Source: an archaeon (lineage in GTDB: Archaea > Iainarchaeota > Iainarchaeia > Iainarchaeales > CSSED10-239). Taken from it: 11,995 nt of DNA. Position numbers and translations under genes: made by a program. The notes under the pieces were generated by a model, which saw nothing but the letters and a program-made list of their open reading frames with translations, made no database searches and was not told where the DNA came from. Positions 1,964 through 11,900 of this stretch are shown one piece after another (position 1 is the stretch's first letter; each line of letters begins with the position of its first letter). The DNA lies in NCBI GenBank assembly GCA_035387745.1, contig DAOOON010000008.1:23525-35519 (forward strand), read 5' to 3'.

Positions 1964-2073
1964 ATTTATCTGTAGTTTAATTTGATTATTATAATCTATA
2001 TATAATAAAATATATTTATAAATACTTCAGCTCAGTATATTTAAGTTGAATTTTGGTTTTTTGGGGATTTAAA
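1964..2073. promoter_or_regulatory. Divergent intergenic region, presumably carrying promoters for both the glycosylase gene (-) and the giant gene (+)
   Basis: A 110-nt, extremely AT-rich spacer between two divergently oriented starts. TATA-like strings: 'tttataaata' (2015-2024), 'tatattta' (about 2036-2043), 'tataat' (about 1989-1994). A purine patch 'ggggat' lies 6-7 nt upstream of ATG 2074. No recognisable Shine-Dalgarno sequence precedes the minus-strand ATG. Exact promoter elements cannot be assigned without knowing the domain of life. Confidence 0.4.
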
Positions 2074-2142
2074 ATGAATAGAAAATTTCTTGTTTTTATA
2101 ACTATATTTGCTATTGTTCTTTCCCTTAATTTAATTTACGCA
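2074..2142 (+). other. N-terminal Sec-type signal peptide of the giant protein
   Basis: Basic n-region (NRK), a 17-residue hydrophobic core (FLVFITIFAIVLSLNLI), and a small residue at -1 ('IYA|S'). Confidence 0.75.
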
Positions 2143-5100
2143 AGCACTCTTTCTGTTGATAAGAACGAAACCTATCTAGGAGACACTGTTGTAATAACAG
2201 GAACCGGATTTTCTCCAAGTTCAACACTTGTTTTACAAAATAACCTTGAGCCAAACTCTGCTTGGTGGGATGGATATAATGAACAATGGGGTTTTCCAAC
2301 CTTTGTTACAACAGACGAAAGCGGTAATTTTACATATAATTGGACAGTGCCTTTTGATTTTAGAATTTCTCCAGGTAAACAATATTTTTCCGTAGGCAAT
2401 AATATATCTGCAACAATTTATTGGAATGGTGGAGGAGATTATCCGACTTCTAAAAATAAAACAATATGTGATGGGAATTATTGTTATGTTACTTCAACAT
2501 ATACAAATCCAAATGGCGGTGTTGAAAAATTTAATATGTCAACAGGAGCAAGAGAATGTAATGCTTCTGTTGCGGTTACAGGAACAGGAATAGCAATAGA
2601 TGGGACATATATATACACAACATATGCTGCAACATCAAACAATCTTAGAAGAACAGCAATGGCAGATTGTACAGGAACATCAACATTTACTACTGCCGGC
2701 TCTAATACATATTCTGTTGCTATTTCCAATGGTTATGCTTTTTTTGGTTATAATGTTAATATTGCCCCAAGAAAATATGAAAATCTTTCTACAACTCCTT
2801 CACAAGTTGTAGCATTTGCGCCAGCATCAAGAAATTCTATTGCAAACTACATTTGTGTTACTCCTGATGCAACAAAAGTCGTTGTTGGCTATGCTGATGG
2901 TAATGTGTTGGCATTTGATTACACAACAGGAGCAACATTATGGAATTCTGATCCAGATGATGATGTTACTCAAGCAATTTCTGGGATGCATTGTGATAAT
3001 GACAAAATATATGTTGCAAAAGCTTACAACTCTACAACAAACGGGCCACTGTTTGGTGGTTTTGCATATGCCTTAAGTGCTTCTGATGGAGCTTTGGTTT
3101 GGAGAAGCGAAAGAATAGATAGTCATTATGTTTATAGTTCATATACTAACGTTGCTTGTGATTCTGTAAATTGTTATGCGTCAGTTTTATCTCCTCCACT
3201 CGGGGGTGCAGGAATTAATGGTGCTCCAATTATTCAAATAGACAAGACTACTGGCGAAATTGGTTGGGTAAAATGGAGATCTTGGCTTCCAGCAAGCACG
3301 GGGGATTATGGTACTAGCACAACACATCAAAGTCCAATGGATTTGTGGGTGGATTCTGATGAAAATGGTTTTATTTATCCGGTTTATTCTGGAGGGAGAA
3401 TACAAAAACTTTCAAAAAATGATGTTAGTGTTCAATCTTTCCCAGATACAAATCTTTGGATAAGAAGCAATACTAATCTTTATAATTTTGTAATGAACCC
3501 AACAAAGAATGTTTTCTATAGCAATGAAAGACCAAGTTTTAATTTTAAAGCAATAGATAACTATGGTCAGTATATGGACGCTGATGATAATAGATTTAAT
3601 ACCTCTCATTTAAAATTTAGTACAATTAATGCTTATAATGAATTTACTGCAGCAGAGGCCGGTTCTGCTACAGTTGCCTCACAATTTATGGATCCAAGAA
3701 TTATGTCTGTTTATTCTGCAACAGCAACACTTCCAAATCCTACACCATATAATTATTTAAAATTCATGTATGACGAATATGACAGTGGTGTATTTTGTGA
3801 AACTGCAGTTTATAACACAAAATTATTTGGTTGGCATATCAACAACAGATATTGTTTATATGAAAATCTAGAAGTTAATAATGCAACACTTAATCACACA
3901 CAAAATGGTGTAAAGCTTGCTTCTATTGCAAATTACTTTTTAGTAAATCCTAATAAATGGAACAATTTTCCAATCACAAAAACATTTGGAACAGATAATT
4001 GGACTTGGTCATCAAGTCACAACCCTACTTATGATCAAATATTAGGTTATGCAACAAGATTTGGTTCTGATTTTAATGAAGCTTGGTTTAATCAATTAGG
4101 TCAAGGAACTTCTTTTAACACAAACACAGGAACAACTTCTTTAATAGATTATATTGATGCAACTCAAGATTTTAATAATGCTGATCCAAGATTACAAAAA
4201 TGGCATGAATCTTATTTCTTATTTAAACCTCTTGGTTCAGGGGCAGACGGAAACAGACATTGGCAATATATTGAAAATGACACTAATATGATTGCTACTC
4301 CAATAACCGTTGTTCAAGGAACAAATCAATCTGGAAGTTATTTGATTGGTGCAGATACTTTTTCAAATAGAATAGATTTCAATGCGACAGAAGCAGGAAT
4401 ACTAGAAAGAACAAACGAACCATTCTGGTTTGATGTTAATTTCATAGATAGCATAAATTCAGATTGTTCAGACATTGTTGTAACAGACATTACAGATACT
4501 CCAATTGGTTTATGGCAACTTGATTCTGAAACTTGTACAGCAAATAATTATTACACATTGTTTGTTCAAGACAATTTTACTTTAGGACAAGAAAAACAAT
4601 ATAGATTATATTATAATTCTCCAACAGCAGCAGTTACTCCAGGAGGAACAACAGACTTAATTACTAGTTTAGTTTCTGGAACCTGTGCTGCAGGAACAGA
4701 TATTATTGATGTAAATAGTACTAATTGGTATAGATGGGTGCAGCCAGGAGTTGGTGCAGTAGCTGCTAACCAATTATATTTTAATTTTGGTGGAAGTTCA
4801 AATACTTGGTTTAATCATGCGACAACAAGATATGCGTTAAGAGCAGGGTATTTAAATAGTCAATCTGCAGGAACGGGTGCAGGGTCAGTAACAAATACAC
4901 TTGGAACCGCTCTAGCTACTTTTACTTCAAGGTGTTATCAAAGAAGCTATAATAAAGACAAGATATTTACACGAATTGACATGAATACTGCAAACTTTAC
5001 GATTGCTCCACACACTCCAACCGAAATTAATCCAAATGCAACAACAACATTTACAAGGAAGATAATGAGTCGTTGGTATTTCTTTAATGGAAATGGAAGA

Positions 5101-8100
5101 ATAAGAATAATGTTTAAACTGGATGAACCATTACCAGTAATGACTACTGGTATTTCACAAACATATCACCCTTATTTTTATTTTGGAATGTATGCTTTAG
5201 TTCCACAAGGAACAGCAACAGTTGCTGCAAATAATTTTGTTAACTGGTCAGGAAGAAAAGAATTAATGGATGAATATACTCCTGTACAATTGTCTCCTGA
5301 TAAAAAGTCAGCGATATTAACTCCTAGTCCTTTACCATTGACTTTTACAATAGACTATAATGGTGAACACTTCCCAACGGTTTCTTCTGCAAGTAGCAAG
5401 GTTGGCGGTGGTTGTACCGTACATAAGGTTTGGCCATATTTTTCTTGGAGACCAATTGATCCCGTAACAACAACAAATGCAACAACTTTTGCTTCAGCTT
5501 ATACTACTGACTTTATATCTTGTGATGAAGATTTAAATGGCACAATTCCTGATATTGGAAATGATGGTTATGTTAATGTATTTCCAAAAGAATCAATCTA
5601 TGGAACAGGATTAAACAGATTTGTTGACCCAAACTATATTGCGAAGTTTTATTTAAAGCCAAATCTCTATATTCCTGACAATAGAGAAAACAGATGGCTT
5701 CCACCACTAGCATTAAATTCACAATATGGAACATCTGCAAAAGTAAGTACAATTATTTTAGATGTTTGTCCAACAGAAGAATATGGTTATAAAGGTTATG
5801 ATGATTTTTTAGCAGATTTAGATGATTTAATCTCAAGTTCATCAATACACAAAGTTGAAGAAAACACAACTAATATTCCTTGTGCAACATCTATTACCAT
5901 TTTTAGTACTAATACCGGTTCGATAGGTAAATATTTCTTATTCCAAAGAGATGTTAATGTTGTTGTAGCAGATGTTTCACGACCAGATGCACCATATCCA
6001 AGTTATCTTTATGATCCAACAACAGGTGCTTTATCAATAAATGGAAGTTTAGATTATACAAATGCTCAAAAATCAACACAATATCTTGGTAAATGGTTTT
6101 TTACGTCAAGTTCTGATCCTTATGTAATAAGCGGTTATGCAACAACAGGTGCTGAACAATTACAGGGTGCTAAAAGATATGCTTGGGCACCAAGCTTTGC
6201 TTTTAATAAGAAAGTTTATTCTGAGAATTTATTTTGGAATAAAAGCATGTCAAATTTAACTTATCAACAAAGTCCTTGTGCTTGGAATTTTTCAACAAAC
6301 TATTGGGGAGACATGGATTTTGGTCCAGGCTGGAAGAAAACAATGTCAACGACTCAGCAAGGAACAATTTGTCCAAGAAATGAAAGTAATATGGAACACT
6401 ATTCTTCTTTTAGAATGGCGCTTGCTTCTTTGTATCCAGCAAATGCTTTAGTTGTTACTGCGATTGATAATGTAATAGATGGTAGACCAAATAAAGTTAC
6501 AACCATAAATGATCTTGGTATTGATGCATCAATGTTTTCTAGACATAACTCTTTATGGGATTATAATCATTATAGCGATTACACACAAGTTTTAAGTGAT
6601 TTTTCTGAATTAACAGAAGGCACAAAACATTCTAATGATGAGCCTTGGCAATGTGATTTCTCACGATATGATTCTAAAAATTTCTGTATAGTTCCTGCAA
6701 CAACAACAACATTAATTTATACTGCAACTCCCGGAGTATTAACTGCTTCTACAACAAGCGGCATGTGGTCTCCATATTACCAATCAAATAGAGAATATTC
6801 TGTTCTTAGAAATTATTTTAACAATGTTTGGTTTAATACTGCCGCAATGTTTCCAACATATGATTTTTTAACAGAAAATACAATCTTTCCAATGCTTGGA
6901 GAAACAGAATTTACTTATGATACACTTTATACAAGTAATAATCCAAACGATTATAATGATTTAATGGATAAATTATTTCCAAGATTGCACGGAGCACTTT
7001 ATCAAAATCAATTCCTTTTAAGAGATTGGAAAAATACAGCATTTATGGTTCTTTCAGGAGGAGACACAAGAGAATATCTTCGTGGAACAACAATTAATGT
7101 TTCAGGATTTATGATGAAAGATAGTGACAGTCTAGCAAATGCGCCAATCATTGTTCAGGTCTTTAAAAACTCTGCACCAGAATCCCCACTAACAACTTAT
7201 CAAACAATAACTGATGCCAATGGAGACTTTAATTATTCTTATACAATTACTCCAACAGCAGAACCAGGTCTTTATTTCTTTAAGGCAATTTACAATAATG
7301 GAGAAATAACTGGGACAACGTCATTTAAAGTTTCGGCTCTTAATATTGCAACGGTTTTAGATAAATCAGTTTATGTTGCAGGAGATAGTGTTTTTGTTAC
7401 AACAACAATAAGTGATGCAATAATTGGAGATTTAATAAGTGATGCAACAGTCAATTTAGTAATAAGTGGGCCAGCAGGAAATACTTTATTAACGACCCCC
7501 ATGACTAATGCCGGATTTGGAGTATATACTTATTCTTTCCAGTTGTCTCCTGAAACTGTAAATGGAACATATGTAGTAACAATTACCGCAACAACCGCAG
7601 ATAACACAGGCAGTGCAACAACAACATTTGGAGTTGGTGTGGCAGTAAGTTCAATTAATATAATTAACAATTTCCAGATTTCTGATGCAAATATAGAATA
7701 TGTAACTCAAGTAACAACTTTACAAAATGTTGTTGCAACACCACTATTAGAATTTACTATCAATTATCAATTGTCTGGTGGATTAGATTTAGAAAACATT
7801 ACTTTATTTACAAAAGATGATATTGTTCTTGAAAGAGTTTATGATTTTGATGATCTTAATAGAACAACATATTATCTTTCATTAGATTCTTCAAATAATC
7901 CTATAGTTTATATAATGGCAAACTTTGAAGCAAGTCAAATAAGAACAATGACTTTTATTGCGGAGAATAAATATTATGAACACATAGAACAAGATTATAA
8001 TAGTGTAAACAATTATTCTTCTGAACTTTCAAGTTATTGTTCAATTCTTTTAACCCCTGCTGCCCAAGCAGATTGTGCAAATGCAAATACTTATTTAATA

Positions 8101-11100
8101 GATATAAATGATTATTACACTCAAGCACAAACAGCATCAAGCATAGATCAATTTTACAATATAAAAATAGCAATTGGTGAAAAATATATTTTGTTTATGG
8201 ACATTTTAGATTCTTTAAGAATCTTAGCAACCAATCAAGCAAGCTGTCAAATATTTGTTCCAGGAACTTGGTCTCTTGATTCTAATGTTTCTTTTGCTGT
8301 GTTAATGAATGGGCCATCAAGCATTCCAATTAATGGTTTGACTTTCGATGTCAATCTTTTCAATTATAATTCAGTTCTTGTTGATTCATATTCTGTAGAT
8401 GAATATGGCGAGGGATGGTATTATTCTTCTTTTTCAACTCCAAGTACGGGCGGAGGGTATAATCTAAGAATTGATCAAAATATTGGGACAAATAGGTTCC
8501 AGTGTGCTGCATCTTTTGATGTTAATCAGGCATCTGGATCAGTAATTGGTGGAGAGATTGGGGGGGGATTAACTGCAGATCAAAATGCAACGCTTTATGA
8601 GATATTAGGAATTGTTACAGACATTAATGCAACATTAAATGATCTTGAAGAAATAATATTTGATATTAATGCAATAGTAACAGACATAAATTCAACAGTT
8701 TCTGATATAGATTCAAGATTAAGTACTCTTGAGACAAGCCTATCTGATATTAATTTGTTATTGACTGGAATTGATTCAAATATTAATTACATAATTGGCA
8801 ACATGGCTACAACAACAGACATAACAAATTTAGATTCTACTTTACAAACAATTTTAGGTTATAATGTAGATATTAATCAGACAGTTCATGATTCTGCTAC
8901 TCAACTAAATAATTTGTACGATTTGTTGGACGACATTGATGATCAAATAGATGCAATGAATAATACCATAACTGATATAAACGCCTTAATAACAACTTGT
9001 GAAAATGCTCCAGAAACAAGTATTTGTGCAGATATTAATGGTTTATCAAATCAATTAAATAATATTAATTCTACAATAGATATTATTTCTTCAACAACAC
9101 AAGATATTAATTCAACAACAAGCTCTATGCAAGGCACAATAAATACTTTAAACAACACCTCAAACAGCATTCTTTCAACAGTAACAGACATTAACAATAC
9201 AAGCACATTTATTCTTTCTAAAGTAAACACCATAGAATCAAATACACAAGATATACAATCCAATATAACAACAATAATGTCTGATTTAAATTGTGCAGGA
9301 ACTCCCCCAGAATATAGTGTTTGTGGTAATCTTCTAAATATCAGTTCTTTAATTTCTGATTTTAATATTAGTACACAATTATCACTATTAGATATTTCTA
9401 ATGCATTATCAACAATAGAATATAATCAACAAGATATAAATCAAAGTATATCTTATATTTTAGAAGATTTAAATTGTGAAGACGAAAATGCTAGTCCAAT
9501 CTGTAGCAGTATACAGACCATAATTGATAACACTGATACCTTAGAAACAAGCATTTCGGATTTAAATAATACAATGATAATAATTGGAGACAATGTTTTA
9601 GATATTAATAGTAATACCAACAATGTACTTTTAGGAATATCTGATTTAAATAGCAGTAATCAAGAAATTCTAGATGATCTCTTAAATATTTCAGAAGAAA
9701 TAACAAATACTCAGGGATTGATTTCTGATACCAATTTAAATCTTACAAACTATCTATATGATATTAATGATACTGTAGATGATATAAATGACACAGTAGA
9801 CGACATAGGTGGAACAACAGGGGGAACAAGCGACAAGGTTGATGAGATAAAAGACATAGTACTAAATATAGATAATAATGTTTCTGAAATTAACACCACA
9901 CTAACAGACATTAATACACAACAACAAGCAATTCAAGCAACGCTAGCAAGCATGCAATTGACTTTAAGTGATATTAATGACACTACAACAAACATTTACA
10001 CAGACCAACAATCTAGATTTACGGTTGCTATAAGTGATTTTAGTGAAATTGGTTCTGGTGACGTCTATAGAGCAAAAGTCTGGGTGTTTGATTATGATGG
10101 TTCTCCAAAAGATGCAGATAGCAATGATGCTAAAATTACACTTTATGATCCAGAAAGAAACATAATTACAGAAAATATAACAATGACAAGATTATCAGAA
10201 GGAGTATACACTTATGATTATAATGTAGGAACTGGCCAGATTGCAGGAATCTGGGAAGCAGTGGCAACCGTTTTAGTAAATGGAGAAAATGTTAGCCCAA
10301 GTGATTTCTGGGAATTAGTTGGTAATCCTCCAGAAGTTAGAATTAATTCTATTGTTGATACAAGTATTCCAACAATAACAGCAGACGTTATAATTACAAA
10401 CGAAGGAAGTGCAAGTCAAGAGTATCAATACGAATATTGTATTGTTTCTGATCAATCAAATATGTGTGGTGGAGGAGACGATGTTGATTATTCAAGTGGT
10501 GCAAAGTTAATACTTCCCGGACAAACGTGGAATACGGAGTTGACTTTAAATGTTCCAACTGTTGGAACATATTGGTTTAAGATTAAAGTTTATTATGGTG
10601 TAGAAATGAGTGCTGCTTCTAAGCAGTTTGTAGCAACGACTGGTGGAACAAACACTGGAGGAACAGGCGGAGGCTCTTCTGATATAAGCGACGTTACAGG
10701 CCTTGTAAGTTTGCCTGTTGCTGTAGGAGAAATTGCAATTATAGAATACCCAACAGATATGACAATAATTCAAGGAGATTATGGATTTTATACCCTTAGA
10801 ATAAAAAATATTGGAAGTATTGATTTATCAGACATTAAATTAACCATTGAAGATTTACCAGAAAGCTGGTGGGAGATACAACAAGAAAAGACAATATTAA
10901 GTCCTAATGAAGAAGGCAGCTTTGTTATAAAGCTAAAAGCACCAATGGATGCTGAAGTAAAAGATACTCTTGTTAAATTTAAAATATCTTCAAAAGAAGA
11001 CACTCGTTTAAGAGAAAGCATTCTTAGAGTTCTTGAAAAATCTCTAGCAGAAATTAGATTTGTAGATGTTAAAGTTTCTCCAATTAAAGTAAATGGTTAT

Positions 11101-11568
11101 GGAGAGATTGAGTTTATTATTCAGAATATGAGCCTATATGATCAAAATATAACTGCGACACTTCTTGTTCCAAGAGATTGGCAAATAGAAGATAGCGATC
11201 AAGCTATTATTTTAAAAGGCGGAGAAACAAAGCGCATAATTTTTGTTGTTAATGCATCATATATTAGCGGGGTAAGAGACTTAGTGTTTGTGATAAAGAA
11301 CAATACCGGCCAGAGATTTAAAACAGGAGAAGATAAACTATTTAAGCAATTGATGGTAATAGTAATAAATGACGAGAAAGTAAAAAGCGAATTGAATTTC
11401 TTTAATCAGTTTAATGGAATAGGTATTGGTATTCTTATAATTATCTTGTTATTGGTTATTTTAATAATAATCTTTTTATTTGGCATAAAAAATAATAAAA
11501 AACAAAGACCATCTTTAGGATATAATAGAAACATTTTAGATAAATTAATGGGTTTGAGAAGAAAATGA
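2074..11568 (+). CDS. Giant (about 3,160 aa) modular, membrane-anchored cell-surface protein; putative adhesin or surface fibre
   Basis: A single uninterrupted ORF (track 2053..11568, TTG). I prefer ATG 2074 because it yields a canonical signal peptide, 'MNRKFLVFITIFAIVLSLNLIYA|ST', and has 'gggga' just upstream. It ends with a hydrophobic helix plus a basic tail and TGA at 11566-11568. An open frame of this length in AT-rich DNA is itself strong coding evidence. Confidence 0.93.
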   Translation: MNRKFLVFITIFAIVLSLNLIYASTLSVDKNETYLGDTVVITGTGFSPSSTLVLQNNLEPNSAWWDGYNEQWGFPTFVTTDESGNFTYNWTVPFDFRISPGKQYFSVGNNISATIYWNGGGDYPTSKNKTICDGNYCYVTSTYTNPNGGVEKFNMSTGARECNASVAVTGTGIAIDGTYIYTTYAATSNNLRRTAMADCTGTSTFTTAGSNTYSVAISNGYAFFGYNVNIAPRKYENLSTTPSQVVAFAPASRNSIANYICVTPDATKVVVGYADGNVLAFDYTTGATLWNSDPDDDVTQAISGMHCDNDKIYVAKAYNSTTNGPLFGGFAYALSASDGALVWRSERIDSHYVYSSYTNVACDSVNCYASVLSPPLGGAGINGAPIIQIDKTTGEIGWVKWRSWLPASTGDYGTSTTHQSPMDLWVDSDENGFIYPVYSGGRIQKLSKNDVSVQSFPDTNLWIRSNTNLYNFVMNPTKNVFYSNERPSFNFKAIDNYGQYMDADDNRFNTSHLKFSTINAYNEFTAAEAGSATVASQFMDPRIMSVYSATATLPNPTPYNYLKFMYDEYDSGVFCETAVYNTKLFGWHINNRYCLYENLEVNNATLNHTQNGVKLASIANYFLVNPNKWNNFPITKTFGTDNWTWSSSHNPTYDQILGYATRFGSDFNEAWFNQLGQGTSFNTNTGTTSLIDYIDATQDFNNADPRLQKWHESYFLFKPLGSGADGNRHWQYIENDTNMIATPITVVQGTNQSGSYLIGADTFSNRIDFNATEAGILERTNEPFWFDVNFIDSINSDCSDIVVTDITDTPIGLWQLDSETCTANNYYTLFVQDNFTLGQEKQYRLYYNSPTAAVTPGGTTDLITSLVSGTCAAGTDIIDVNSTNWYRWVQPGVGAVAANQLYFNFGGSSNTWFNHATTRYALRAGYLNSQSAGTGAGSVTNTLGTALATFTSRCYQRSYNKDKIFTRIDMNTANFTIAPHTPTEINPNATTTFTRKIMSRWYFFNGNGRIRIMFKLDEPLPVMTTGISQTYHPYFYFGMYALVPQGTATVAANNFVNWSGRKELMDEYTPVQLSPDKKSAILTPSPLPLTFTIDYNGEHFPTVSSASSKVGGGCTVHKVWPYFSWRPIDPVTTTNATTFASAYTTDFISCDEDLNGTIPDIGNDGYVNVFPKESIYGTGLNRFVDPNYIAKFYLKPNLYIPDNRENRWLPPLALNSQYGTSAKVSTIILDVCPTEEYGYKGYDDFLADLDDLISSSSIHKVEENTTNIPCATSITIFSTNTGSIGKYFLFQRDVNVVVADVSRPDAPYPSYLYDPTTGALSINGSLDYTNAQKSTQYLGKWFFTSSSDPYVISGYATTGAEQLQGAKRYAWAPSFAFNKKVYSENLFWNKSMSNLTYQQSPCAWNFSTNYWGDMDFGPGWKKTMSTTQQGTICPRNESNMEHYSSFRMALASLYPANALVVTAIDNVIDGRPNKVTTINDLGIDASMFSRHNSLWDYNHYSDYTQVLSDFSELTEGTKHSNDEPWQCDFSRYDSKNFCIVPATTTTLIYTATPGVLTASTTSGMWSPYYQSNREYSVLRNYFNNVWFNTAAMFPTYDFLTENTIFPMLGETEFTYDTLYTSNNPNDYNDLMDKLFPRLHGALYQNQFLLRDWKNTAFMVLSGGDTREYLRGTTINVSGFMMKDSDSLANAPIIVQVFKNSAPESPLTTYQTITDANGDFNYSYTITPTAEPGLYFFKAIYNNGEITGTTSFKVSALNIATVLDKSVYVAGDSVFVTTTISDAIIGDLISDATVNLVISGPAGNTLLTTPMTNAGFGVYTYSFQLSPETVNGTYVVTITATTADNTGSATTTFGVGVAVSSINIINNFQISDANIEYVTQVTTLQNVVATPLLEFTINYQLSGGLDLENITLFTKDDIVLERVYDFDDLNRTTYYLSLDSSNNPIVYIMANFEASQIRTMTFIAENKYYEHIEQDYNSVNNYSSELSSYCSILLTPAAQADCANANTYLIDINDYYTQAQTASSIDQFYNIKIAIGEKYILFMDILDSLRILATNQASCQIFVPGTWSLDSNVSFAVLMNGPSSIPINGLTFDVNLFNYNSVLVDSYSVDEYGEGWYYSSFSTPSTGGGYNLRIDQNIGTNRFQCAASFDVNQASGSVIGGEIGGGLTADQNATLYEILGIVTDINATLNDLEEIIFDINAIVTDINSTVSDIDSRLSTLETSLSDINLLLTGIDSNINYIIGNMATTTDITNLDSTLQTILGYNVDINQTVHDSATQLNNLYDLLDDIDDQIDAMNNTITDINALITTCENAPETSICADINGLSNQLNNINSTIDIISSTTQDINSTTSSMQGTINTLNNTSNSILSTVTDINNTSTFILSKVNTIESNTQDIQSNITTIMSDLNCAGTPPEYSVCGNLLNISSLISDFNISTQLSLLDISNALSTIEYNQQDINQSISYILEDLNCEDENASPICSSIQTIIDNTDTLETSISDLNNTMIIIGDNVLDINSNTNNVLLGISDLNSSNQEILDDLLNISEEITNTQGLISDTNLNLTNYLYDINDTVDDINDTVDDIGGTTGGTSDKVDEIKDIVLNIDNNVSEINTTLTDINTQQQAIQATLASMQLTLSDINDTTTNIYTDQQSRFTVAISDFSEIGSGDVYRAKVWVFDYDGSPKDADSNDAKITLYDPERNIITENITMTRLSEGVYTYDYNVGTGQIAGIWEAVATVLVNGENVSPSDFWELVGNPPEVRINSIVDTSIPTITADVIITNEGSASQEYQYEYCIVSDQSNMCGGGDDVDYSSGAKLILPGQTWNTELTLNVPTVGTYWFKIKVYYGVEMSAASKQFVATTGGTNTGGTGGGSSDISDVTGLVSLPVAVGEIAIIEYPTDMTIIQGDYGFYTLRIKNIGSIDLSDIKLTIEDLPESWWEIQQEKTILSPNEEGSFVIKLKAPMDAEVKDTLVKFKISSKEDTRLRESILRVLEKSLAEIRFVDVKVSPIKVNGYGEIEFIIQNMSLYDQNITATLLVPRDWQIEDSDQAIILKGGETKRIIFVVNASYISGVRDLVFVIKNNTGQRFKTGEDKLFKQLMVIVINDEKVKSELNFFNQFNGIGIGILIIILLLVILIIIFLFGIKNNKKQRPSLGYNRNILDKLMGLRRK
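2143..2430 (+). other. Ig-like (IPT/TIG- or Big-like) beta-sandwich domain
   Basis: 'LSVDKNETYLGDTVVITGTGFSPSSTLVL...TTDESGNFTYNWTVPFDFRISPGKQYFSV'. The 'GD-x-V-x-ITG-x-GF' and 'D-x-x-G-x-F-x-Y' strands are typical of bacterial and archaeal Ig-like surface modules. Confidence 0.55.
2455..3420 (+). other. Roughly 7-bladed beta-propeller (PQQ-like / YVTN-like repeats)
   Basis: Seven recurrences of a 'D-x-x-x-x-Y' strand: CDGNYCY (aa139), IDGTYIY (182), SNGYAFF (225), PDATKVVV (271), CDNDKIY (314), CDSVNCY (369), DENGFIY (436). Spacings are 43, 43, 46, 43, 55 and 67 aa. PQQ-propeller-like 'G-x-[LV]-x-A-x-D-x-x-TG-x-x-x-W' strands are also present ('DGNVLAFDYTTGATLWN', 'YALSASDGALVWRS', 'IIQIDKTTGEIGWVKW'). 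Residue numbers count from the track start at 2053. Confidence 0.6.
4405..4632 (+). other. Possible DUF2341-like beta-sandwich module
   Basis: 'ERTNEPFWFDVNFIDSINSDCSDIVVTDITDTPIGLWQLDSETCTANNYYTLFVQDNFTLGQEKQYRLYYNSPTAA' resembles the DUF2341 pattern (feature list, then 'DI-x-F-x-D...L-x-x-x-x-E-x-W...vkv...Y-x-YYGN...A'). Recognition is by eye only. Confidence 0.3.
7081..7645 (+). other. Two tandem Ig-like beta-sandwich domains (CarboxypepD_reg / Big-like)
   Basis: 'TINVSGFMMKD...IIVQVFKN...TITDANGDFNYSYTITPTAEPGLYFFKAIY' and 'VLDKSVYVAGDSVFVTTTISD...VNLVISGPAGNTLL...GVYTYSFQLSPETVNGTYVVTITAT'. Both contain 'TD-x-x-G-x-F' and 'G-x-Y-x-[VF]-x-[IA]' strands typical of these folds. Confidence 0.55.
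8560..8567 (+). repeat. G8 homopolymer tract inside the giant CDS (codons att-GGG-GGG-GGa, 'IGGG')
   Basis: Read directly: '...ggagagattg gggggggatt...'. The g at 8560 plus seven g at 8561-8567 gives 8 consecutive G. It is the longest G/C run I saw in the window. Confidence 0.95.
9760..9801 (+). repeat. Tandem 21-bp in-frame duplication encoding DINDTVD twice
   Basis: 'gatattaatgatactgtagat' (9760-9780) and 'gatataaatgacacagtagac' (9781-9801). The peptides are identical, with 4 nucleotide differences, all at synonymous third positions. Confidence 0.9.
10015..10635 (+). other. Post-stalk Ig-like domain followed by a CARDB-like domain
   Basis: 'YRAKVWVFDYDGSPKD...ITLYDPERNII...GVYTYDYNVGTGQIAGIWEAVATV', then 'PEVRINSIVDTSIPTITADVIITNEGSASQEYQYEYCIV...LILPGQTWNTELTLNVPTVGTYWFKIKVYYG' (CARDB-type 'V-x-[IV]-x-N-x-G' and 'G-x-Y-x-x-x-[IV]-x-V' strands). 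A Gly/Thr linker 'TTGGTNTGGTGGGSS' follows (10636-10680). Confidence 0.5.
10728..11305 (+). other. Two membrane-proximal CARDB / NEW3-like beta-sandwich domains
   Basis: 'YTLRIKNIGSIDLSDIKLTIEDLPESWWEIQQEKTILSPNEEGSFVIKLKAPMDAEVKDTLVKFKISS' and 'GEIEFIIQNMSLYDQNITATLLVPRDWQIEDSDQAIILKGGETKRIIFVVNAS'. Both show the 'N-x-G...P-x-[GD]-W...L-x-x-G-E-x-x-x-x-x-x-[IV]-x-x-P' layout seen in archaeal and bacterial S-layer-type modules. Confidence 0.5.
11416..11487 (+). other. C-terminal transmembrane anchor of the giant protein, followed by a 27-aa basic tail
   Basis: 'GIGIGILIIILLLVILIIIFLFGI' (24 uncharged residues), then 'KNNKKQRPSLGYNRNILDKLMGLRRK'. By the positive-inside rule the tail is cytoplasmic and the bulk is extracellular. 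Confidence 0.85.
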
Positions 11569-11900
11569 TATCTGGAAGTTTAATGTTTGTGTTGTTTATA
11601 AATTTTGTTATAATCATGTGCGTGGTTATTTTTTTCTTAAGGCACATGTCTTTAAGATTTAGAGAAGAATTTGACGAAACAAATAAAAGACTAGAAATGA
11701 TTGAACATAATATGCAACACAATGAATTGAGATTAAAACATTTAGAATTAAGAATAGACAAGCACCATGATGTTTCTGAGCATCACTATAAAAAACCAGA
11801 GATACACAAAGATATCGAAGACATGAAAATAGTTGTAAAAAAGATAAATCAAAATACAGAAAAGATCTATAAAAAAACAGAAGAACTATTCAAAAAGTAA
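11565..11900 (+). CDS. Small (111 aa) single-pass membrane protein with a charged, His-rich coiled-coil-like domain
   Basis: Its ATG (11565-11567) overlaps the giant gene's TGA (11566-11568) as ATGA. It has an N-terminal hydrophobic helix, 'SLMFVLFINFVIIMCVVIFFL', then 'RHMSLRFREEFDETNKRLEMIEHNMQHNELRLKHLELRIDKHHDVSEHHYKKPEIHKD...'. Stop TAA at 11898-11900. No family recognised. Confidence 0.6.
   Translation: MISGSLMFVLFINFVIIMCVVIFFLRHMSLRFREEFDETNKRLEMIEHNMQHNELRLKHLELRIDKHHDVSEHHYKKPEIHKDIEDMKIVVKKINQNTEKIYKKTEELFKK

Follow-up and report, generated by a model that had tools for sequence, protein, structure and literature searches.

A candidate N-glycosylation sequon in phase with the heptad repeat of a giant archaeal stalk protein

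Introduction

Long coiled-coil stalks are an established feature of archaeal surface glycoproteins. Tetrabrachion, the surface-layer (S-layer) glycoprotein of Staphylothermus marinus, is a membrane-anchored single polypeptide whose large distal part is carried on a coiled-coil stalk of ~70 nm, and a crystallized 52-residue fragment of that stalk (PDB 1YBK/1FE6) contains two sequons, NET and NVS. In SlaB of Sulfolobus acidocaldarius, six of the 14 predicted N-glycosylation sites are located on a 132-aa C-terminal helix that forms a trimeric coiled coil (PMC10903991). Here, we describe a further stalk of this general kind, encoded in an 11,995-nt stretch of archaeal DNA (GenBank assembly GCA_035387745.1, contig DAOOON010000008.1, positions 23,525 to 35,519; this whole stretch is called the window). 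One gene of the window specifies a 3164-aa giant surface protein with a heptad coiled-coil stalk, in which N-x-S/T sequons recur in phase with the repeat.

The window protein belongs to neither the tetrabrachion nor the SlaB family. It shares with tetrabrachion the archaeal origin, the membrane anchor, the single chain and the combination of a large distal part with a long stalk. However, 11-residue repeats underlie the right-handed tetramer of the tetrabrachion stalk, whereas the window stalk is heptad-based with six register breaks, and the window protein has a predicted beta-sandwich pedestal between coil and membrane that tetrabrachion lacks. The hosts also differ, being a hyperthermophilic crenarchaeon for tetrabrachion and a mesophilic DPANN archaeon for the window. 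A phmmer search with stalk and C-terminus against all PDB sequences, tetrabrachion included, returned no match at E <= 0.01, and no description of an in-phase sequon in tetrabrachion was present in the literature searched. SlaB is likewise a membrane-anchored archaeal stalk with both beta-sandwich domains and a trimeric coiled coil, and its sequon density (~4.5 per 100 aa, against 5.1 here) is similar. Unlike the window protein, in which the coil is followed by four beta-sandwiches and then the transmembrane (TM) helix, the SlaB coil runs straight into its TM helix; SlaB is also far shorter (475 aa against 3164 aa) and has no sequence relationship to the window protein, and neither a phase-locked sequon nor a D-I-N heptad has been reported for it.

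Outside the archaea, the stalks of influenza neuraminidase and other viral type I/II glycoproteins offer a functional analogy, as these oligomeric, membrane-proximal stalks too bear several N-glycans each. They are evolutionarily unrelated, short, modified at 4-5 sites by the eukaryotic oligosaccharyltransferase (OST) of the endoplasmic reticulum, and devoid of a long regular heptad array. A literature search for coiled coil together with sequon and heptad found only papers on such viral glycoproteins. An earlier statement, made in a preliminary description of the window, that no described coiled coil with such a sequon was known to its author goes too far, given the sequon-bearing stalks of SlaB and tetrabrachion. 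What is new is the giant-protein family itself, undescribed to date, along with the demonstration that its sequons are phase-locked.

Results and discussion

The stalk is a heptad coiled coil

The stalk segment under study (nt 8560-10020, 487 aa, in the frame of the open reading frame (ORF) 2053..11568) is a true heptad coiled coil. Its register was set by a Viterbi procedure on hydrophobicity alone, using shuffled sequences as control, and is interrupted by only six breaks over the 487 aa (score 126, compared to 33 +/- 6 for the shuffles). Ile, Leu, Val or Met occupy 80% of the a/d positions and 9% of the other heptad positions. The preliminary description had reported 21 consecutive hydrophobic a/d positions; this unbroken run is present at aa 2181-2251 (ORF numbering) and reaches 25 positions with one register skip. 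The position table (L/I/V at a; D at c, 37%; I at d, 66%; N at e, 33%; T at g, 30%) also reproduces the consensus [VL](a)-x-D-I(d)-N(e)-x-T(g) given there, with the sequon in phase; an example stalk peptide is VTDINSTVSDIDSR.

A separate heptad scan of the full protein placed the stalk boundaries within a few residues of these limits. Power at the undecad period of 3.67 was not above background, and the heptad register fits throughout. In a global Fourier analysis of hydrophobicity, the peak power was inside the shuffle range, but this analysis is uninformative because register breaks destroy long-range coherence, and the Viterbi score with shuffles was used instead. AlphaFold 2 (AF2) modeled 448 of ~490 residues (aa 2175-2664) as helix; the model is of a monomer, from a 3-sequence alignment and with a per-residue confidence score (pLDDT) of 51, and only its secondary structure was used. 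Pfam and NCBIfam searches of the stalk gave coil-type matches only (SMC/Rad50/DUF1664), all sub-threshold. A homology search with the stalk alone returned no matches and missed its own protein too, hence it is silent on DINxT coils elsewhere.

The 487 aa hold 55 Asp and 18 Glu, compared to 3 Lys and 2 Arg. With only five basic residues against 73 acidic ones, the stalk is strongly acidic, and the e/g salt bridges usual in coiled coils are therefore missing. According to the Harbury rules, Ile at d together with L/I/V at a favours trimers or tetramers over dimers. Since Ile prevails at d and L/I/V at a, the stalk is probably a parallel trimer or tetramer. Polar core layers with Asn at d, which bind ions in the stalks of trimeric autotransporters, were considered and rejected, as Asn is rare in the core (2 of 68 heptads at a, 0 of 66 at d) and is found at e, outside it.

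Sequons exceed chance expectation

The stalk segment contains 25 N-x-S/T sequons (x not Pro) of the 67 in the whole protein, a density of 5.1 per 100 aa. Asp or Glu stands at position -2 in 16 of them (DQNAT, DINAT, DINST x2, DINQT, DINNT, DFNIS, DINQS, DENAS, DLNNT, DLNSS, DINDT x3, DNNVS, EINTT); translation of the segment gives exactly the list drawn up previously. Composition shuffles yielded 15.6 +/- 3.3 sequons, with 21 of 3000 reaching the observed 25, and 2.4 +/- 1.5 extended sequons (D/E at -2), with none of 3000 reaching the observed 16. Shuffling within heptad positions, which preserves the position table, gave 17.0 +/- 3.0 sequons (10 of 2000 reached 25) and 4.4 +/- 1.8 extended sequons (0 of 2000 reached 16). 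Both the sequon excess and the excess of acid at -2 thus stood up to either type of shuffle, and the reverse motif, S/T-x-N, was not enriched in the stalk relative to the heptad-position shuffle. The related expectation that candidate glycan sites would follow one another at heptad periodicity was borne out as to phase, which is held at e, but not as to spacing: e-phase sequons occupy 16 of ~68 heptads, i.e., one per 2-4 heptads.

Asn at e is coupled to Ser/Thr at g across the family

In the window stalk, g is Ser or Thr in 16 of the 23 heptads with Asn at e, compared to 10 of the 45 without (p = 2e-4), and the sequon excess over the shuffles arises because of this coupling. The same e-g coupling is present in every stalk-bearing member of the family, with odds ratios (ORs) of 14-41 in members that are 30-37% identical. 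It is also specific for Asn, as Thr is found at g after 50-56% of N(e), compared to 26% after D, 6-23% after Q and 20% after S. In a distant clade, a second phase is coupled as well, namely Asn at g with Ser or Thr at b (OR 3.8, p = 2e-5). Between orthologues, Ser/Thr was kept in 100 of 128 cases where Asn was kept, compared to 21 of 41 where Asn was lost, a rough count to which local conservation contributes.

The coupling exists at offset +2 only and is absent at -5 and +9, the offsets of inter-helix g-e' contacts; pairing between helices was rejected as its cause on these grounds. No direct contact explains it either, because residues i and i+2 face opposite flanks of the helix. Recent tandem duplication was likewise rejected as the source of the motif, since its copies differ in their synonymous codons and Tandem Repeats Finder detected only two short, weak DNA arrays. 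By these alignments and counts, N-x-S/T is a family-wide, Asn-specific, offset-specific, in-phase unit that is maintained by selection.

Glycosylated sequon or structural heptad

The explanation we favour, at slightly better than an even chance, is that the stalk carries a real, selected, in-phase sequon that is glycosylated by AglB. Following this reasoning, the chain would be exported by its signal peptide and held by the C-terminal TM helix as a type-I anchor, while ~450 helical residues would assemble in parallel and raise the ~2100-aa head above the membrane by as much as 60-70 nm, with Cys loops, a stutter and a Gly-rich linker serving as hinges or disulfide staples. N(e)-x-S/T(g) would be an archaeal AglB-type sequon under selection across the whole family, and D(c)-x-N(e) a structural trait peculiar to the stalk in the window's clade. 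AglB would modify a subset of the Asn residues at the outer membrane face, on the emerging unfolded chain and before the helices zip, leaving a stripe of glycans on the e flank (approximately one per 2-4 heptads, up to 25 per chain). Such glycans could give solubility, protease protection and freedom from lateral sticking to a rod almost without Lys or Arg; for the stalk glycans of influenza neuraminidase, this role has been shown (PMC12456132).

A more specific picture, which we hold tentatively and short of an even chance, is a glyco-coiled-coil in which the e-to-g flank of every helix bears an AglB sequon per 2-4 heptads, so that as many as 75-100 glycans would wind as a helical stripe around a multi-chain rod of 60-70 nm. 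That the glycans would replace e/g salt bridges as the source of solubility and specificity is a tentative proposal of the same standing. AglB is known from this part of the archaea: a cultivated DPANN archaeon has aglBDE (bioRxiv 10.1101/2023.10.27.564410), and another paper takes the AglB proteins of DPANN as an established group (PMC8993221). Within the family, the heads of the sister clade (P0007-P0015) are enriched in sequons (z = 3.5-6.9, compared to z ~0-1.4 for the reverse-motif control), which on sequence grounds is the look of a heavily N-glycosylated protein.

The serious competitor is a purely structural heptad, in which D-I-N-x-T would be a flavour, suited to packing or solubility, of an uncharged extracellular coil rich in Asn and Thr, the sequon a by-product and the stalk unglycosylated. 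We regard this as a credible possibility, though clearly below even. Several observations weigh against glycosylation and speak for this competitor. D-I-N is kept more tightly between orthologues than the hydroxyl at +2 (e.g., DINQT/DINNA/DINST and DINAL/DINNT/DINST). Coupling in the window's clade involves the e phase alone and enriches Thr but not Ser, and this counts against glycosylation because a structural N-x-T flavour would produce the same e-phase-only, Thr-only pattern. D(c) and N(e) are coupled as strongly as N(e) and S/T(g), without matching any known rule of archaeal sequons or having a known role in archaeal glycosylation; i/i+2 couplings that owe nothing to a known archaeal sequon therefore exist in this coil. 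In trimers and tetramers, part of position e is buried, and an Asn there is semi-buried in higher oligomers. Moreover, sequons are not in excess in the heads of the window's clade (36 observed and 35.9 expected for the window protein; z from -1.7 to 1.1 for six members, P0001-P0006) or in two other signal-peptide proteins of the same contig (z = -0.1 and -1.3).

Further points tell against glycosylation. Conserved head sequons are no commoner than the reverse motif, the AF2 model of the stalk is monomeric and of low confidence, and no WWDYG-type motif or STT3 Pfam match, as expected of STT3/AglB, was present in ~150-200 kb of related contigs, which are too small a part of any genome for this to indicate absence.

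Conversely, the structural heptad does not account for the strict Asn-specificity of the coupling, as Thr is not drawn to g by Asp, Gln or Ser at e, nor for its restriction to an offset at which the two residues lie on opposite helix flanks, with nothing at the g-e' offsets. It also sits poorly with the distant clade, where Asn(g) is coupled to S/T(b) with Ser and Thr both enriched, and with the global sequon enrichment of the sister-clade heads.

If the sites are used, there would be no clearer case, at the sequence level, of a coiled-coil repeat that has evolved together with the N-glycosylation machinery. The stalk would also supply a design rule for glycan-decorated helical rods (Asn at e plus Thr at g) and illustrate the construction, by uncultured DPANN archaea, of long tethers that are exposed to proteases and reach toward host cells. 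If they are unused, the Asn-specific i/i+2 coupling would stand as a structural rule without explanation for coiled coils that are extracellular and uncharged. In both cases, the protein represents an undescribed family beside murein-active enzymes in an archaeon.

Segmentation of the stalk

The AF2 model divides the stalk into seven helices of 76, 62, 89, 13, 29, 106 and 73 residues. The breaks coincide with a stutter (GNMATTTD), three Pro-bearing Cys-x8/9-Cys loops and the linker GGTTGGTS. A continuous rod of ~70 nm, as calculated previously, thus stands only as an upper bound: the stalk is predicted to be segmented, and its 448 helical residues correspond to ~66 nm at most. The Cys loops are kept in all close homologues, and six loops are present where the stalk is ~380 aa longer; the stalk therefore grows by whole modules, with lengths of 486 to 870 aa among homologues. 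The loops, which recall the disulfide rings of fibrinogen, may be disulfide staples or hinges.

The loops could alternatively be hairpin turns that fold the helices into a shorter antiparallel bundle, so that no long parallel rod would exist. The pLDDT values, which peak (70-84) around Cys loops 2 and 3 and suggest helix-helix packing in the monomer, agree with such a fold, yet folding back is a routine outcome when AF2 models homo-oligomeric coils as monomers. The helices flanking each loop are also unequal in length (62/89, 89/13+29, 29/106), Ile at d with L/I/V at a over the full length fits a homo-oligomer, and the length of homologous stalks varies by whole modules. Overall, the bundle appears unlikely.

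Within the stalk, recent internal duplication is clear only for DINDTVD-DINDTVD at 9758-9807 (21-nt period, 2.4 copies, 82% match).

The acid at position -2

In the window's clade, D(c) is coupled to N(e) (19 of 23, compared to 10 of 43). The resulting pentapeptide resembles the extended sequon of Campylobacter PglB, which 16 of the 25 stalk sequons fit, and the preliminary description had raised a reading of that type. In this reading, D/E-x-N-x-S/T would be recognized as one unit by a PglB-like OST, or by an AglB in which the requirement for an acid at -2 has arisen by convergence, and its appeal lies in the 16 observed sites, where the heptad-position shuffle leads one to expect about four. 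However, the genomic context is archaeal, and a three-way test found S/T(g), given N(e), to be independent of D(c). In the distant clade, the sequon is retained in the absence of the acid. Outside the stalk, D/E at -2 is not enriched at sequons (24%, compared to 17% at other Asn; p = 0.38), and in the neighbouring secreted protein only 2 of 26 sequons have it. D-x-N-x-S/T is made up of two pairwise couplings that overlap, and is not an extended sequon of the PglB type; the likeness to Campylobacter is a resemblance only, and we consider recognition of the pentapeptide as a unit very improbable.

The weakest explanation is a composition artefact, in which the counts would be chance in a low-GC genome where Asn, Thr and Asp are common (window ~31% GC; stalk N 13.6%, S+T 24%); this alternative, also raised at the outset, is barely credible because both shuffle types are exceeded with a flat reverse motif, and because homologue P0004, on a 44% GC contig, keeps the same heptad table and motif, while its own K/E-rich cytoplasmic coiled-coil tail (Asn 2.6%) has 0 sequons.

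Layout of the gene and its neighbours

The features of the window are listed in Table 1. Membrane topology was read from the sequence by eye, with the signal peptide and TM helix assigned in this way. Since a signal peptide is found at the N-terminus and a hydrophobic helix with a basic tail at the C-terminus, the predicted location of the stalk is extracellular, on a beta-sandwich pedestal and bearing the large head. A search of the PDB with the head gave no sequence match. The AF2 model of the pedestal is all-beta (pLDDT 72.5), and its Foldseek matches are arrays of macroglobulin (MG)/immunoglobulin (Ig)-like domains.

Table 1. Coordinates of the giant gene, its parts and its neighbours (positions in the window)
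Feature	Position	Strand	Basis or remark
Neighbour secreted protein (1561 aa), C-terminal 430 aa	10..1302	+	YkuD/ElsL-like L,D-transpeptidase and glucosaminidase-like regions
Gene for the 3164-aa giant surface protein	2074..11568	+	ATG at 2074 is the called start; the ORF lister begins at TTG 2053
Signal peptide, N-terminal, MNRKFLVFITIFAIVLSLNLIYAS	2074..2145	+	Inferred from n/h/c-region pattern in the translation
Head, ~2140 aa, conserved	2146..8559	+	Numerous invariant columns across 10 homologues
PQQ/BamB-like beta-propeller signal, in head	2896-3270	+	PQQ_2 Pfam, sub-threshold
MG2 domain, in head	7351-7635	+	Pfam MG2, E = 2e-19
Coiled-coil stalk, aa 2170-2664	8560..10044	+	Heptad consensus [LIV]a-x-Dc-Id-Ne-x-Tg
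Cys loop 1, CENAPETSIC (C-x8-C, with Pro)	8998..9027	+	AF2 helix break; conserved in homologues
Cys loop 2, CAGTPPEYSVC (C-x9-C)	9292..9324	+	Register, homologues, AF2
Cys loop 3, CEDENASPIC (C-x8-C), holds the sequon DENAS (one of the 25)	9475..9504	+	Register, homologues, AF2
Gly-rich linker GGTTGGTS between the last two stalk helices	9808..9831	+	AF2
Pedestal of four beta-sandwich (Ig/MG-like) domains, membrane-proximal; Gly-rich linker after the second	10045..11415	+	AF2, Foldseek
TM helix (11416-11487) and short basic tail KNNKKQRPS...RRK, C-terminal	11416..11565	+	Inferred from the translation
111-aa membrane-protein ORF	11565..11900	+	Start overlaps the stop of the giant gene (ATGA)

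The 111-aa ORF is kept downstream of the giant gene in every contig, with only weak, sub-threshold Pfam matches (TssO, DUF948), and its position suggests co-translation with the giant gene. The neighbouring signal-peptide protein of 1561 aa is encoded in full on contig L001 (10662-15347, minus strand) and has a YkuD/ElsL-like L,D-transpeptidase/carboxypeptidase domain. A syntenic gene for 1752 aa adjoins the L008 homologue, and the homologue in L010 has a gene for an SLT lytic transglycosylase nearby. The presence of such murein-active enzymes beside an archaeal giant gene suggests an interaction with bacterial cell walls.

The protein family and its host

The giant-protein family is a rare one: among 1.84 billion, 8 cluster representatives matched at E < 1e-30. 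Its members occur in archaeal (Woesearchaeota) metagenome-assembled genomes. The identical 3164-aa product is present in at least six independent assemblies or samples (JGI 3300010355, 3300025855 and 3300009782; ENA ERZ761564 and ERZ27257431; NCBI GCA_964645375.1), the JGI contig with the identical sequence being 81 kb long; this distribution indicates that one widespread, little-diverged population carries the protein. Homologues adjoin archaeal-only markers (ribosomal protein S8e, PolD small subunit, GatD, aEF-2/EF-1alpha and geranylgeranyl reductase), and TrmB/DUF7343 is encoded on the same contig as the giant gene. These genes mark the host as archaeal; it is regarded as an uncultured DPANN archaeon of the Woesearchaeota type.

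One family member is encoded on LBWB01000040.1 (L009, 6.3 kb), which was binned as 'Candidatus Woesebacteria bacterium', a bacterium of the candidate phyla radiation (CPR), and is probably a mis-binned archaeal contig. Another, P0006 (L011, 2224 aa), stops just after the head and lacks the stalk, the pedestal and the anchor. An ORF of 318 aa overlaps the end of its gene, which may be truncated or split. The cytoplasmic tail of the window protein is basic and only 26 aa long. P0004, a protein of MAG GCA_964354805.1, and P0005 have K/E-rich cytoplasmic coiled-coil tails of 146-232 aa past the TM helix, with 0-2 sequons and 2.6-4.8% Asn.

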